From Gammaproteobacteria bacterium (GTDB taxonomy: Bacteria; Pseudomonadota; Gammaproteobacteria; G965277405): DNA of 64,000 bases. The notes under the pieces are model-generated. The model was not told the DNA's origin. It was given only the letters and a program-made list of their open reading frames with translations, and made no database searches. This document shows positions 1,606 to 56,324 of this stretch, piece after piece. Every line of letters begins with the position of its first letter. The first letter of the stretch is position 1. Position numbers and translations under genes: made by a program. Location: assembly GCA_965277405.1 (NCBI GenBank), contig OZ255726.1:2080001-2144000 (forward strand). Reading direction: 5' to 3'.

Positions 1606-1638
1606 GGAACCTCTGCTTAAGTCCATGCTGGGCGAGAC
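1606..1638 (+). mobile_element. Solitary left end of the IS5-like MITE family
   Basis: GGAACCTCTGCTTAAGTCCATGCTGGGCGAGAC matches the start of the 3227 and 21468 copies. Confidence 0.8.
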
Positions 1639-1930
1639 ATACAAATAAGTTCTATCCTTTGATTAATAAAATATTGAGCGCTGCAATATACTTGACAAAG
1701 ACAGAGTTAGGATAATAATCGCCAGCAATTCTTATACGCATCGCGTTTTGGATATTGGCGTATGGTGTTAAGATATATCAGCCAAAACCGTTGCACACTG
1801 CGTTTTGCAGCGTTTATGCAAAGCATAAGTATACAGTAGTGTTGAAAACTCATTCTACTATTATCAATCTCGCAAGTTTCGCTGACGTTGACTTCAGCCA
1901 CAATACCACTGCGACAACATAGGAAAAGCT

Positions 1931-3226
1931 ATGAGTAATCGCAAAGCACATCTGCACATTGATGGCAGAGATCCAATTGAGCTAAACATCATCTCTGGAA
2001 CGCTTGGCCCTGATGTTATCGATGTCGCTCCTTTGCTTGCTGAAGGGTATTTTACCTATGACCCGGGCTTTATCGCCACCGCGTCGACCGATTCAAAGAT
2101 TACTTTTATCGATGGTGACGAAGGGATATTGCTCCACCGTGGCTATCCAATCGAGCAACTGGCAAAGGAGTCTAATTATATAGAACTGAGCTATTTGTTA
2201 CTGAATGGCGAGTTACCAACAATTGAGGAATATAACTCGTTCAAACGGCGTATTAAAAATCATACGATGGTCACAGAACGCATGGCCAAATTCATTAATG
2301 GTTTTAGAGCAGACTCGCATCCGATGGCGGTGATGTGCGGATTAGTTGGCGCATTGTCGTCTTTCTACCATGAAAATCTGGATATTTCTAACCCAGAACA
2401 TCGGTGTCAAACAGCGATTCGCATTGTCTCAAAAATGCCAACACTGGCAGCAATGGCATATAAATATTCACAAGGATTGCCGTTTATTTATCCTGATAAC
2501 AGTTTAGCTTTTGCAGAAAACTTTCTCCACATGATGTATGCAACGCCATGCGAAAAATATGTAGTTGACCCGCTGCATGCTCGGGTGATGGATGTGATTT
2601 TTATGCTCCATGCCGATCATGAGCAAAATGCTTCTACTTCAACTGTTCGTCTGGCTGGATCTACCAACGCCAACCCATATGCCTGTGTGGCATCGGGAAT
2701 TGCTGCTTTGTGGGGACCACTCCATGGCGGAGCGAACGAAGCGGTGATTTTAATGCTACAAGAAATCAACTCGGCAGATCGTATTGCTGGATTTGTCAAT
2801 CGTGCCAAAGACCCAAATGATTCATTCCGCTTGATGGGGTTTGGACATCGTGTCTATAAGAATTTTGACCCGCGCGCCAATGTGCTGCGGGATTTTGCCA
2901 AAGAGATCATTGCCAACAGACCAGAAGACGAGTTGAGCAAAATGTTTGTGATTGCCGAAGAATTAGAAAAAATCGCCTTGGAAGACCCGTATTTTATTAA
3001 AAAACAATTGTATCCAAATGTTGATTTTTACTCAGGTATCGTGTTGAGCGCTTTAGGAATTCCAACAACCATGTTCACCGCAATTTTTGCAATTGCTCGG
3101 AGTATTGGCTGGATTTCTCATTGGCATGAGATGAGTAGCAGCCCAGGAAAAATAGGCAGACCCAGACAACTGTATACAGGAGCAACGCGTCGCGATTACA
3201 TTGCTGCAGAACTGCGCTCAGCCTAA
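1931..3226 (+). CDS. gltA: Citrate synthase (type II)
   Basis: [58 protein letters not shown] upstream. Confidence 0.97.
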
Positions 3227-3520
3227 GGAAGCTCTGATTAAGTCCTTGATGGGCGAGACGGAGCAAAAACGCTGATGATAACTAGACGCAGTGCGCAGAT
3301 AATACTGGTGGTCTTGTGGGTATTGCCAAGTGCTGCAACGACGCAGCGCAGCGTTTTTTCCCGTCCTTCTATTGAATATATGATGGTTTGCCTACAAGCG
3401 GTACTTGCTGTGTTGCATCCCTTGGCGTATATGCTACGGCATGCGCTTAGCGGTTTGCGCCTTGCAATCATCAGCAATTGCCAACAAACTCTCTCTATCA
3501 GCGAGTTAATCAGAGGTTCC
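3227..3520 (+). mobile_element. Full-length MITE (294 bp) with IS5-like ends and CTAA target-site duplication
   Basis: Left TIR GGAAGCTCTGATTAAG, right TIR (rc) GGAACCTCTGATTAAC (14/16). CTAA at 3223-3226 and 3521-3524; the first CTAA contains the gltA stop. No transposase inside. Confidence 0.88.
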
Positions 3521-3525
3521 CTAAG

Positions 3526-4430
3526 TGTCAAAACTACACACGTTGTTTACAAAAACCAACAATTCTAGCAGCTGGTGGTAGATTCCCTAAAGCGGAATGT
3601 GTGCGACTGAGGTTATAGTGATTAAGATATTTTGGAAGAGCTTTGTTGCGCTCATCACTTGTTTGCTATGGCTGCGAAAATGCCCATTCCTTGCTAAGCG
3701 TTTGTATCAACCTTTCTGCTTTTCCGTTGGTCTGCGGCCTGTATGGTTTGGTAAAAACGTGCTTGATTTGACAAGCATCAAGATATCGATTTACGAACTT
3801 TGATCGATATGCAGGTCCATTGTCTGTCATCAGCCGGTTCACCGCTATTCCCAAAGATGAAAAATGCTCCAATGCTCGGTGTATAAACCCCTGAGTCGTT
3901 TCCTTTTTCTCATCAGGAAGCACCTCCACAAACGCCCATCGACTATGGTCATCTATACAAACATGGGCGCACTCAATACCATGGCCTGTATTTGCTTTTG
4001 CAGGAGCACCAAATTTATGCCCAGTGGAGTAAAACGTTGCAGTTTGTTGATGTCCAGATGCAGCATGTCACCAGGGTGTTCATGCTCATAGCGATGCGCT
4101 TTTTCTCTTTTTAAGGTCTTTTTTGTAAGGCATAGCCGTCTCAAAATTTTGGTGACAGTGGAGTATGCCAATTGCAAATACTTGGCAATGCTCCGTGCAT
4201 TCATTTGTGACTCTAAATAGAGTTTTTGGATGCGTTGAGCCAAGGTCTCAGCGAGCTTAGCTGGGGTTGAAATTGGCCTGCTGGAAAGATTGTACAGTGC
4301 AGATGTTCCACCTGATTTATAGCGTCTGAGCCACTTGTAAACAGTTAGTAGCGAATAGTATCGAAATGGCAAAATAGTTGGCTACGCGATTCACAGGGTG
4401 ATTGTCGACAAGCACCCTGTGAATCGCGTA
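3526..4430 (-). pseudogene. IS481-family transposase relic
   Basis: Pieces TVYKWLRRY..SSRP, RYEHEHPGDMLHLD, MTDNGPAYRS, KPYRPQTNGKAERLIQTL, then an in-frame TAG, then YNLSRTHSALG. A TGT-initiated end lies at 3526. Frameshifted and 5' truncated. Confidence 0.88.
4383..4430. repeat. 48-bp near-perfect palindrome
   Basis: TACGCGATTCACAGGGTG-A-TTGTCGACAA-G-CACCCTGTGAATCGCGTA; one mismatched pair. Confidence 0.95.
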
Positions 4431-4574
4431 ATTGTATGTAAACGCCTGAATCACACCTTGTTGCTCAAGCTCATTCAGTTCGCGCTCATCCATAATCGTG
4501 AAGGCCATCTCAAGCTGTTGCAGCGAGCGTTTGAAATTATCGAATCTGTGTATCCAACGAATATCGGGTGACAT
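4431..4574 (-). pseudogene. Truncated HEPN (HI0074-like nucleotidyltransferase substrate-binding) protein
   Basis: MSPDIRWIHRFDNFKRSL..ELEQQGVIQAF is a typical HI0074-type N-terminus, with a GGAG RBS. It runs into IS481 sequence before the RX4H motif. Confidence 0.75.
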
Positions 4575-54927: not shown

Positions 54928-54995
54928 GTATGGAAATTAGGCAGTAAACCCTAGCGCTGCAGCCATAAGCAGCACCATAACATAAGGAGAACGCT

Positions 54996-56054
54996 ATGAC
55001 TAACAGAAGGAATTTTATAAAAAATACTGGTCTTGCCAGTGTTGCAGCAGGGGCGATACTTGCAGCCCCGGCAATTCGAGCGCAACCTGCTAAAATCACT
55101 TGGCGCTTGCAGACCTATGCCGGTCCTGCATTGGCTGAACATGTCATCAAACCTATGATTGACTCATTCAACAAAGTTGCCGCTGGTCAGATGGAAATCC
55201 AGCTTTTCACAGCTGACCAGCTCGTGCCGACTGGTGAATTGTTTCGCGCCATGCAAAATGGGGTGATTGATGCAGTACAATCAGACGAAGATTCTATAGC
55301 AGCTCCTGTAGACGTATCGGTTTTTGGCGGATATTTCCCGTTTGCAACCCGTTACAGCCTCGATGTGCCAGTGCTTTTCAATCAATATGGTTTGAAAGAA
55401 ATCTGGGAAGAAGCTTATAGCGAAGTAAAAAATGTGACATGGCTTTCAGCAGGTTCTTGGGATCCTTGCCATTTCAATACAAATAAGCCAATTCGTTCGC
55501 TTGCAGATTTGCAAGGTTTGCGCGTGTATACCTTCCCAACTGCTGGACGCTTTCTCTCACAGTTTGGTGTTGTGCCAGTTGAAATTCCGTATGAAGATGC
55601 TGAAGTTGCGGTGCAAACTGGCGAACTTGACGGCATGGCATGGTCTGGCATTACCGAAGATTATACCGTTGGCTGGGCTGACGTTACCAAATATTTTCTC
55701 ACCAATAATATCGCTGGTGCATGGATTGGTTCGTTCTTTGCAAATACGGATAAATGGAACGAAGTACCGCCACATCTTCAGGAATTATTCCGCCTTTGCA
55801 TGGATTCATCGCATTACTACCGTCAGCATTGGTATTGGGGCGGCGAAGCAAAACTGCGTACTCTTGCAGCCGATCAAGGACGTAAACTTGAGCTAACCTC
55901 CATTCCTGATGAAGAATGGGCACAAGTTGAAACCAAAGCGCGTCAGTTCTGGGATGACATTGCCAAAGGCAGCGAGCGCAGTGCCCGTGTTGTGAAAATC
56001 CTTAAAGAATATTCAGCCGTTATGGGCAAAGCAGGCAAACCGTACCGTAGCTAA
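54996..56054 (+). CDS. TRAP substrate-binding protein (DctP/TakP-like), Tat signal
   Basis: NRRNFI, AAPAI, WRLQT, PIRSLADLQG, TGELDG; AAGGAG RBS. Confidence 0.93.
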   Translation: MTNRRNFIKNTGLASVAAGAILAAPAIRAQPAKITWRLQTYAGPALAEHVIKPMIDSFNKVAAGQMEIQLFTADQLVPTGELFRAMQNGVIDAVQSDEDSIAAPVDVSVFGGYFPFATRYSLDVPVLFNQYGLKEIWEEAYSEVKNVTWLSAGSWDPCHFNTNKPIRSLADLQGLRVYTFPTAGRFLSQFGVVPVEIPYEDAEVAVQTGELDGMAWSGITEDYTVGWADVTKYFLTNNIAGAWIGSFFANTDKWNEVPPHLQELFRLCMDSSHYYRQHWYWGGEAKLRTLAADQGRKLELTSIPDEEWAQVETKARQFWDDIAKGSERSARVVKILKEYSAVMGKAGKPYRS

Positions 56055-56067
56055 ATTGCTCTACAGA

Positions 56068-56096
56068 CTTAAACAGAGCTTCCTTCTGGAAGCTCT
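56068..56096 (+). terminator. Hairpin after dctP formed by back-to-back MITE ends
   Basis: CTTAAAC-AGAGCTTCC-TTCT-GGAAGCTCT. Confidence 0.55.
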
Positions 56097-56301
56097 ATTC
56101 TATGCGAGTCTAAGCAGATGAAAGAGCGGATAGAATAATTGCTATTCTAAAAAAAACGCAAAATAAGTACGTCATCGCCTCCAATATTTTTATCAAAGTA
56201 CTGATTGATGAAAAACATCACTCCTTGTTTTCTTATGAGATTTTCTACATAGCACAGAAAAAAGGTCATAGCATTGGAGCTGTACGTGAACATCGACATA
56301 A

Positions 56302-56324
56302 GGAAGCTCTGATTAAGTCGCTCC
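56302..56324 (+). mobile_element. Solitary MITE end upstream of sdhC
   Basis: GGAAGCTCTGATTAAGTCGCTCC preceded by ATAA. Confidence 0.82.

Follow-up and report, generated by a model that had tools for sequence, protein, structure and literature searches.

An IS5-group MITE family in a 64-kb gammaproteobacterial window, inserted at YTAR and partly located at gene ends

The window analysed here is a stretch of 64,000 nucleotides from a Gammaproteobacteria bacterium (assembly GCA_965277405.1, contig OZ255726.1, positions 2,080,001 to 2,144,000). Among its genes are a divergent glpK/gltA pair, a row of ABC-transporter genes, an aspartate-dehydrogenase-like gene, an ABC ATPase gene, a pilin-like ORF and a dct region with a phaR-like gene. 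A short end sequence, GGAASCTCTGATTAAS, recurs between and at the ends of these genes. Allowing up to three mismatches, it occurs 17 times in the 64-kb window compared with 0.95 expected from the shuffle mean (100 shuffles, maximum 4, none reaching 17). The matches begin at 1606, 3227/3505, 17682/17954, 21468/21679, 31989/32020, 32203, 36008/36332, 43986, 48920, 53557, 56068 and 56302. Every coordinate given for a recurrent 16-bp end by the first-pass annotation was thus recovered, 12 sites by this search and 52886-52916 by blastn-short. The 17 ends were assigned to 13 sites, namely four long copies (227-340 bp), three hairpin minis, five solo ends and one end of an insertion sequence (IS) relic:

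1606..1638, forward strand: solo L-type end of 33 nt with one mismatch, flanked by GTAG and located between the divergent glpK and gltA genes; 88-90% identity to the 3227 and 21468 copies over their first 33 nt.
3227..3520, forward strand: 294-bp full copy, the best preserved, with two perfect 16-nt ends.
17682..17969, reverse strand: inverted full copy, 288 bp, two mismatches per end, no intact duplication; within the row of ABC-transporter genes, where it separates the phosphonate-binding-protein gene (stop at 18025) from the permease gene (start at 17660).
21468..21694, forward strand: internally deleted copy, 227 bp (about 85 bp lost), flanks CTAC and TTAG; about 90% identical to the 3227 copy across the shared parts.
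31989..32035, unoriented: mini element of 47 bp, two terminal arms of about 21 nt and a 5-nt loop.
32036..32218, reverse strand: relic of an IS5-group insertion sequence with a terminal repeat (32218 to 32203), a leader of about 58 nt and transposase codons 1-36.
36008..36347, reverse strand: 340-bp element with a different, AT-rich interior, right flank TTAG.
43955..44001, unoriented: decayed mini of 47 bp, flank CTAA on the strand of the ABC ATPase gene.
48911..48935, reverse strand: solo end, perfect 16-mer.
52886..52916, unoriented: strongly decayed mini in the divergent phaR-like/dctQ intergenic region, without the outer 8 nt or so at both ends; 16/16 match to the end core (blastn-short).
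53557..53600, forward strand: solo L-type end of 44 nt, 93% identical to the 21468 copy.
56066..56096, unoriented: right-type end (56066-56083) followed by TTCT and the first 9 nt of a left-type end.
56302..56324, forward strand: solo end, perfect 18-mer, preceded by ATAA.

These repeats are a MITE (miniature inverted-repeat transposable element) family of the IS5 group. The window MITEs measure 47-340 bp and are bounded by terminal inverted repeats. Three of the long copies have in common a non-coding interior of about 290 bp, 85-91% identical in blocks and with the same junctions; the family likeness of the 340-bp element is confined to about 45 nt of the R-type end and about 16-26 nt of the other end. 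Transposase-derived sequence is absent from all MITE copies in tblastn comparisons with three IS5-type transposases, whose sole match in the window (32037-32141) is the relic. There, codons 1-36 run from 32144 to 32037 on the reverse strand and are truncated at a TTAG, and the right end of the neighbouring mini element cuts the relic exactly after codon 36. In BLASTP the relic aligns with residues 4-37 of E. coli InsH1 (13/34 identical, 25/34 positives, E 6e-10), and with the IS5 transposase of pA81 at E 2e-7. Its database relatives show 77% identity and continue beyond the cut point with ...PWKQLDEV. Among the relatives listed, the closest carries PF05598 and the full-length ones PF01609 together with PF05598; the relic itself (37 aa) has no Pfam match. 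The end at about 32205-32218, first counted with the MITEs, is the terminal repeat of an IS relic. The statement that the window holds no cognate transposase stands for an intact enzyme, but not for this 36-codon N-terminal remnant at 32037-32144. On the 2.17-Mb contig, too, no intact cognate enzyme appeared when the best 120 of 792 relatives were listed, although this counts as weak evidence.

The relic bears on a first alternative, which is very improbable. The sites might be independent wrecks of full-length IS5-group copies that decayed in place, with no amplifying MITE family behind them. The segment 32036-32218, an end plus 36 transposase codons, is exactly such a wreck; moreover, five sites are one-ended and just one window copy has its duplication intact. 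However, independent decay does not account for a non-coding interior of about 290 bp with common junctions in three copies, devoid of transposase-derived sequence. In addition, 12 predicted public proteins turned out to be ORFs across further copies of this interior, one of them spanning two tandem copies, and in the public sample it is short elements with an intact duplication that prevail among the matches listed. No Pfam domain is annotated in the database for any of the 12 ORFs, ten of which lie on contigs (the largest of 2,174,577 bp). They also lend indirect support to the earlier proposal of a genome-wide expansion of the MITE family.

The window ends are, by sequence comparison, homologous to those of IS5-group elements. 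The IS5 ends given in the first-pass annotation agree with the fetched E. coli sequences, which read GGAAGGTGCGAATAAG and GGAAGGTGCGAACAAG. E. coli K-12 IS5 (IS5A, insH1) shares 11-12 of 16 end positions with the window ends, and its insH-proximal end 18 of 24, including AAGTCC.TGAT. Both terminal repeats start with GGAAG...GA..AAG and differ at positions 6, 8, 9 and 12 (in one IS5 end also at 13). E. coli IS5 is an autonomous element of 1195 bp with a 326-aa transposase, whereas the window MITEs lack a transposase. A transposase between the same ends does exist: the exact 18-mer stands at both ends of a 1151-bp transposase-bearing IS on contig JABHFC010000429.1 (loci L109/L110). Its flanks are TTAG and CTAA, i.e. 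not a direct repeat, and its transposase is 55% identical to the pA81 enzyme over 82 N-terminal and 58% over 53 C-terminal amino acids. The IS of Methylomonas sp. UP202 plasmid pUP202, annotated as IS5-family (1204 bp; L121, 3005-4208), starts with GGAACCTCTGATTAAT and matches the window end at 15/16 positions in its left end; the following CCCCAAAA resembles the end of the window relic. The IS of Achromobacter xylosoxidans A8 plasmid pA81, likewise annotated as IS5-family (1198 bp; L122, 3005-4202), starts with GGAACCTCTGAACAAG, is flanked by TTAA on both sides and encodes a protein with DDE_Tnp_1 (PF01609) and DUF772 (PF05598). All three elements encode DDE_Tnp_1/DUF772 transposases of 315-322 aa, in contrast to the window MITEs, and past about 20 nt their sequences are unlike the MITE interior. 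Apparently none of them comes from the genome of the window.

IS5 duplicates 4 bp at YTAR. The 3227 copy has CTAA at 3223-3226 and again at 3521-3524, on either side of its perfect ends, as first described. Among 76 paired elements (5 in the window and 71 public loci among the matches listed), 41 carry identical flanking 4-mers and 35 do not, compared with a mean of 9.3 and a maximum of 19 in 2000 shuffles. The duplicated 4-mers are mostly YTAR. Since non-palindromic ones (TTAG, CTAA, TAAA, TAAG, TTAC, GTAA, TGAA) are also repeated directly, the duplication comprises 4 bp and not TA, and the proposed YTAR duplication is borne out. In the target logo of these 41 duplications among the matches listed, Y is found in 40, T in 36, A in 41 and R in 40, with no signal outside the 4 bp, and conservation of the ends drops sharply beyond position 18. 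The duplications suggest that the elements have been mobile. In the window itself, YTAR precedes 7 of the 17 ends (CTAA four times, TTAG twice, CTAG once); the other ends have no YTAR flank. In the window the family looks old: its copies differ by about 10-15%, and only one of five paired window copies retains the duplication.

Several copies adjoin or enter genes. The TAA stop of the gltA ORF (1931-3226) lies at 3224-3226, inside the left CTAA of the 3227 copy, and the mini at 43955..44001 touches 44002-44004, the stop codon with which the ABC ATPase ORF 44002-44706 on the reverse strand ends, so that both abutments reported earlier are real. The right flank TTAG of the 340-bp element precedes the stop of the aspartate-dehydrogenase-like gene, whose ORF starts at 36367, by 16 nt. 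An internal TAA of the 48911..48935 end (48921-48923) is the stop of the pilin-like ORF 48921-49607 on the reverse strand, and the final residues of this ORF, GSSD, come from repeat sequence. The dctQ ORF (52964-53605) draws its final 15 codons from the end at 53557..53600, just ahead of the dctM start.

The gene-end bias is partly supported. Among 41 targets with intact duplication in the matches listed, 10 are stop codons, 22 intergenic and 9 genic, compared with 21, 225 and 423 control YTAR sites, respectively. When the non-genic YTAR sites alone are compared, this is a roughly 5-fold enrichment of stop codons (odds ratio 4.9, p = 8e-4, Fisher test), on the basis of crude ORF calls in which six of the nine 'genic' targets lie no more than about 90 nt from an ORF end and may be mis-called. 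Strong Pfam domains are present in 5 of 9 non-window stop-codon ORFs and in gltA. The description of the family as targeted to gene ends agrees with the enrichment across genomes, but in the window only 2 of 13 sites lie exactly on a stop codon. Within a gene, an in-frame YTAR can occur only at the stop codon, because YTAR contains TAA/TAG on both strands. The position at gene ends is more suitably explained by a preference for YTAR together with selection, the latter being the probable cause of the bias.

Some copies have strong predicted RNA structure. The 3227..3520 copy folds as one long hairpin (z = -5.2) and the mini at 31989..32035 as a hairpin of -21 kcal/mol (z = -6.4). The 56066..56096 site, 21 nt past the dctP stop, forms a 9-bp stem with a 4-nt loop (-15.5 kcal/mol), and the 56302..56324 end lies inside a flank-to-flank hairpin of 12 bp with a T run behind it, a terminator-like arrangement (-23 kcal/mol, z = -5.0). 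Such hairpins, several of them directly after genes and two with solo ends in terminator-like structures, would suit palindromes with a host function, i.e. RAYT-spread REP/BIME-like units, a structured RNA, a terminator or a protein-binding motif. This is nevertheless very improbable: decayed minis including 43955..44001 fold no better than shuffles (z = -0.4 and -1.8), the ends are homologous to IS5 ends, interiors are unrelated across lineages with only the 18-bp ends conserved, and target duplications are present. REP/BIME units are imperfect palindromes of about 20-40 nt without duplication or IS-like ends, and both features occur here. Rfam gave no match at the gathering score in the whole window and none at E<=1 in 3150-3600. 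MITEs of the IS630/Tc1-mariner type, duplicating TA only, with the R before GGAA as first repeat base and Y/R as an NTAN preference, are hardly conceivable: TA stands at -3/-2 in 12 of 17 window ends and the gltA copy has a transposase fragment (HTH_32/HTH_23) at a distance of 430 bp, but this fragment is an IS481-type rve pseudogene whose ends are unrelated, the MITE ends recur on DDE_Tnp_1/DUF772 (IS5) transposase-bearing elements, and the direct repeats TTAG/TTAG, CTAA/CTAA, TAAA/TAAA, TAAG/TAAG, TTAC/TTAC and GTAA/GTAA are not predicted by a TA model, as they exceed TA plus the inverted-repeat base.

The core reading of the first-pass annotation, a non-autonomous IS5-like family with a YTAR target and full, mini and solo forms, was upheld in all tests run, and the complete explanation by an IS5-group MITE family with YTAR insertion, gene-end pile-up and decay is very probably correct. 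In this model the DDE transposase of a full IS5-group element would recognise the 18-bp terminal inverted repeats GGAASCTCTGATTAAGTC, presumably in trans. From what is known of DDE transposases, a 4-bp staggered cut would insert the element at YTAR, and the tetranucleotide would be duplicated on repair. At an in-frame YTAR the duplication would regenerate the stop codon of the gene. Landings in spacers and on stop codons would be tolerated and intragenic insertions purged, and copies would therefore pile up at gene ends. By internal deletion the family would have decayed into 47-bp hairpin minis and one-ended relics, and some of these now provide neighbours with stop codons, short C-terminal tails or terminator-like hairpins, with a possible effect on transcription.

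Among the matches listed, MITEs with unrelated interiors from Gamma- and Betaproteobacteria, Acidobacteriota and other groups have the 18-bp terminus in common; paired elements measure 46-524 bp (76 elements), and one full IS was present among 119 loci. The figures for breadth and conservation come from biased samples, because half of the ends were chosen by exact match and only the matches listed were counted. It is conceivable, though rather doubtful, that one IS5-clade terminus of 18 bp is an address label for many unrelated MITE interiors and that the clade is a pan-bacterial coloniser of gene 3' ends, because the duplication restores the stop codon that its YTAR target represents. If so, the hosts would range over Gamma- and Betaproteobacteria, Acidobacteriota, Nitrospirota and further groups, there would be about 75 MITEs for every autonomous partner (exact-match sample, among the matches listed), C-terminal tails, stop codons and terminator hairpins would be routinely rewritten, and a small genome could carry as much as about one site per 5 kb.

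The element is real and of a well-known kind. Tourist MITEs of eukaryotes belong to the PIF/Harbinger superfamily, a relative of bacterial IS5; they have a TAA/TTA-type target with a 3-bp duplication and are often located near genes, a likeness to the window elements in general description. Bacterial MITEs are described as short, non-coding and mostly intergenic, with terminal inverted repeats and target duplications, with long-hairpin transcripts and occasional in-frame fusions, e.g. the Rickettsia palindromic elements (PMC10969869). A census reports MITEs matching an ISfinder entry labelled IS1106_IS5 (10.1101/2024.01.18.576219). The bacterial MITEs of both papers have the same architecture as the window elements; the term 'stop codon' does not appear in the main text of either. 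The present end sequences were not found in a sequence-string text search of the literature, but an identical family may already be among those in ISfinder or in the supplementary lists of the census.

Neither the gene-end account nor the shared 18-bp end alters what is known of how such elements work. The former offers a simple account of the build-up of IS5-type MITEs at gene ends, in which the stop codon is the target and the duplication restores it, and the latter shows one 18-bp end in use by numerous unrelated MITE families across several phyla. As regards annotation, some 13 sites in this 64-kb stretch should be treated as relics of MITEs or ISs and masked, and not be called hypothetical proteins. 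Public gene calls already include at least 12 ORFs read across such MITEs, and in the window the ends of dctQ, of the pilin-like ORF and of a 43-aa ORF are MITE-encoded.

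The 16-bp end that the first-pass annotation had reported at some dozen sites was recovered at every one of its coordinates. As a 16-mer with at most three mismatches it occurs 17 times in the window, compared with a mean of 0.95 and a maximum of 4 in shuffled sequences (0 of 100 reaching 17). The weakest site, 52886-52916, was detected when the long copies were used to query the window in a short-word blastn. Full, mini and solo forms, all predicted beforehand, are present:

Elements of the repeat family in the window and the adjoining transposase relic
3227-3520: long element, 294 bp
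17682-17969: long element, 288 bp, inverted
21468-21694: long element, 227 bp, about 85 bp internally deleted
36008-36347: long element, 340 bp
31989-32035: mini element, 47 bp
43955-44001: mini element, 47 bp
52886-52916: mini element, decayed
1606; 48911-48935; 53557-53600; 56066-56096; 56302: one-ended fragments
32218->32203 (-): end variant of the relic insertion sequence (IS)
32144->32037 (-): relic ATG and 36 codons, starting about 58 nt after the end variant

There are two end subtypes, which are mutually imperfect inverted copies over about 30-65 nt. The copies at 3227, 17682 and 21468 have a common interior (85-91 % identity, block by block), and the 36008-36347 element possesses the family ends only, around an AT-rich interior of another kind. 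In the 3227 copy both ends are perfect and CTAA stands on either side, as claimed for its target site duplication. YTAR directly precedes 7 of the 17 window ends. The full copy at 3227 is predicted to fold into a single long hairpin (-113.5 kcal/mol, z = -5.2) and the intact mini into one of -21 kcal/mol (z = -6.4); folding of the decayed minis was no better than that of shuffled sequences. Judged by its sequence, the repeat is an IS5-group MITE family in all features tested.

Further copies of the window interior were found with a 102-codon open frame running across the 3227 copy. It matched 12 predicted proteins (48-87 % identity, no Pfam domain), which are the same MITE translated through, one of them containing two tandem copies; ten are encoded on contigs, the largest of 2,174,577 bp. 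These matches support dispersal of the family within one assembled genome or more. The 102- and 108-codon frames over the 3227 copy were rejected as real genes, given the frameshift-like breaks, tandem copies and missing domain in their relatives. Over its first ~65 nt, one end resembles a ~275-bp family of Betaproteobacteria MAGs, which suggests common ancestry of the subterminal region. No plasmid match was obtained for the 3200-3550 copy in distant-mode blastn.

The ends of IS5A from E. coli K-12, retrieved under its accession, are GGAAGGTGCGAATAAG and GGAAGGTGCGAACAAGTCCCTGAT; they agree with the window ends at 11-12 of 16 positions, and the insH-proximal end does so at 18 of 24. When plasmids were searched with a 52-bp mini element by permissive blastn, seven records were returned; in two of them, pUP202 of Methylomonas sp. 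UP202 and pA81 of Achromobacter xylosoxidans A8, a gene annotated as IS5 family transposase starts about 55 nt downstream of the match. Both matches are left ends of ISs, of 1204 bp flanked by TTAA/CTAA in pUP202 and of 1198 bp flanked by TTAA/TTAA in pA81, and the pA81 transposase carries the domains DDE_Tnp_1 and DUF772. The pUP202 coding sequence (3078-4077 of the extracted locus L121) is annotated with 1000 nt and has 8 stops in one frame; this gene is either disrupted or dependent on a frameshift.

The 18-nt end GGAASCTCTGATTAASTC was then the query, with 2-kb flanks, in a search of genome contigs, which returned at least 119 loci; full flanks were available for 80 of those listed. A hand count of record titles over the matches listed gave 57 Gammaproteobacteria or gamma orders, 32 Betaproteobacteria in the wide sense, 22 Acidobacteriota, 2 Nitrospirota, 1 Nitrospinota, 1 'Deltaproteobacteria' and 4 unspecified Proteobacteria; some labels may be wrong because the loci are mostly MAG contigs. 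The matches listed include complete chromosomes from Acidobacteriaceae and gamma MAGs, and in blastn of all listed loci against the window no locus derived from the window's own genome. In most of the matches listed an inverted partner, for which a 16-mer match with at most three mismatches sufficed, lies 46-524 bp from the exact end. The sequence between the ends is wholly different across lineages, and conservation stops at position 18; over 152 ends from the matches listed and the window, position 17 is T in 139 and position 18 is C in 138, a conservation partly built in since half of the ends were chosen by exact match.

An IS5 transposase bounded by the same ends, which had been proposed as a check, was found by tblastn of all loci with the pUP202 and pA81 transposases and InsH1. 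One autonomous element was detected among the exact-end loci listed: L109 and L110 represent opposite ends of one 1151-bp IS (JABHFC010000429.1, positions 160-1310) with the exact 18-mer at each end and an IS5-type transposase inside. Thus, there is an IS that bears exactly these ends. It is flanked by TTAG and CTAA, which form no direct repeat. A search for full-length ISs by partner ends 1-2 kb apart in the loci with 2-kb flanks yielded adjacent MITEs only (L042, L044, L075). Short derivatives far outnumber the full IS in the matches listed, which are a biased sample.

Within the window, a remnant of such a transposase lies beside the mini element at 31989-32035. It aligns with InsH1 residues 4-37 (13/34 identical, 25/34 positives, pairwise E 6e-10) and with the pA81 enzyme (E 2e-7), and a database search with its 46-aa stop-to-stop ORF gave two proteins at 77 % identity, one with PF05598. 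Full-length relatives of this match are IS5-family transposases of 313-317 aa. A Pfam search with the 37-aa relic returned no domain. The relic is broken at TTAG by the right end of the mini, exactly where both 77 % relatives run on as ...PWKQLDEV, and the sequence beyond the far side of the mini holds no continuation of the transposase gene. Both outer ends of 31989-32218 start with GGCAGCTC. Likely histories of this segment are insertion of a mini-MITE into an IS followed by deletion, or internal deletion of the IS. The first-pass statement that the window has no cognate transposase is therefore true of an intact enzyme only. None of the best 120 of 792 relatives is located on the 2,174,577-bp contig, which is weak evidence for absence there.

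Other mobile DNA is present in the window. An IS1595-family element of about 1024 bp (316-aa ORF with DDE_Tnp_IS1595 and a zinc ribbon) exists in two inverted, 99 %-identical copies 9.4 kb apart, at 20221-21244 and 30693-31716. Each copy has its own 8-bp direct duplication (caaataat and agccgatt), so that two independent recent insertions are indicated and a single composite transposon was rejected; megablast against plasmids gave no near match for either copy. Directly next to the gltA MITE, at 3534-4381 (-), is a frameshifted IS481-type transposase pseudogene, whose HTH_32/HTH_23 N-terminus is read in one frame and whose rve-like core and C-terminus fall in two further ones. The G+C content is 0.35-0.40 at 22001-24000 and 30001-36000 vs about 0.45 elsewhere. 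These regions may be acquired DNA; they span a glycosyltransferase gene and the stretch in which the IS copy and the IS5 relic lie together with genes for a Na/alanine symporter and a MatE protein.

Among the public loci, a ~151-bp family in gamma-labelled MAGs (L005, L016, L017, L026, L028, L030, L039, L041, L075, L091 and others) opens with a 27-nt perfect palindrome, in which the first 11 nt of the end and their complement enclose TTAAG; two more hairpins follow. This palindrome seems to stand alone in L029, L077, L079 and L092.

Target duplication was examined in 77 paired elements, with L043, which lies within L044, set aside beforehand together with the reference loci L120-L122 (E. coli IS5A and the two plasmid ISs). 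Both flanks are available in 76, 71 from the matches listed and 5 from the window. Left and right flanking 4-mers are identical in 41 of the 76 and not identical in 35; shuffling of partners (n=2000) gave 9.3 identical pairs on average and never more than 19. In the window one of five pairs is identical. YTAR occurs on the left in 47, on the right in 52 and on both sides in 38 of the 76. Identical pairs include non-palindromic 4-mers (TTAG, CTAA, TAAA, TAAG, TTAC, GTAA, TGAA), and the duplication is therefore a direct one of 4 bp; a TA duplication plus an extra repeat base is ruled out by the same pairs. The logo of the 41 intact cases (Y 40, T 36, A 41, R 40) bears out the YTAR duplication expected of IS5-type ends, with no signal beyond the four bases.

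The copies said to abut the gltA and ABC-ATPase stops do so: the gltA TAA (3224-3226) falls within the CTAA flank of the 3227 copy, and the ABC ATPase stop (44002-44004) adjoins the mini end at 44001. These two window sites lie exactly on a stop codon. Three window ORFs terminate in MITE sequence, namely dctQ, whose final 15 codons are a 44-nt solo end (ORF end at 53557-53605; tail QPLLKSMMGETEQKQ), a 43-aa hydrophobic ORF (21385-21516) ending QPLIKSMMGETEQKR, a tail close to that of dctQ, and a pilin-like ORF (end at 48921-48935) that ends GSSD and has as its stop a TAA inside the repeat. The 36347, 56066 and 17969 sites, the last of them in the transporter operon, are 16-56 nt past a stop, and three window sites lie in divergent promoter regions or beside other ISs.

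A separate case is L053 (CAYFNH010000108.1, a Piscirickettsiaceae-labelled MAG), where a 158-bp MITE at 2-159, with ends as in the window and a different interior, is located about 22 nt past the stop of a gltA homologue (~181-1499; 68 % DNA identity to the window gltA). This homologue is the sole gene-level blastn match between the listed loci and the window. The L053 MITE is an independent insertion downstream of gltA, not orthologous to the window copy.

Terminator-like hairpins surround two solo ends, with a U run after one. At 56075-56096, 21 nt past the dctP stop, two facing TIR tips across TTCT form a 9-bp hairpin; at 56290-56352, upstream of succinate dehydrogenase genes, a solo TIR is enclosed by a 12-bp flank-to-flank hairpin, with a T run after it. 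Both predicted structures look like intrinsic terminators partly made of MITE ends.

Enrichment at stop codons, suspected from the window copies, was measured on empty sites rebuilt for the 41 elements with intact duplications (matches listed and window), using crude greedy ORFs of at least 90 codons. Their targets are a stop codon in 10, intergenic in 22 and genic in 9, vs 21, 225 and 423 for the remaining YTAR sites of the same sequences; comparison of the non-genic sites alone gives an odds ratio of 4.9 (p = 8e-4). Strong Pfam domains reach the C-terminus in 5 of the 9 non-window stop-codon ORFs and in gltA; the other 4 have no such domain. Six of the nine 'genic' targets, each with an ORF end within ~90 nt, may have been classed wrongly. 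The stop-codon bias is real in the sample examined. It follows from the target itself: every YTAR contains TAA or TAG whichever strand is read, and on insertion at a stop codon the 4-bp duplication would regenerate that stop. An extended target signal marking active recognition of gene ends was not seen in the logo of the 41 targets.

No known RNA family was matched in Rfam, over the whole window at gathering score or over 3150-3600 at E<=1, a search that had been proposed as a check for an already described family. A full-text search for the end-sequence strings gave no paper in the collection searched, and a keyword search gave general MITE papers, none treating this family. The term 'stop codon' is absent from the main text of a 2024 MITE review (PMC10969869), and a 2024 census preprint (10.1101/2024.01.18.576219) includes MITEs with an ISfinder match under the label IS1106_IS5. 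The window family may already be catalogued, and the added interest is modest: a terminus common across phyla, together with statistics on landing at stop codons.
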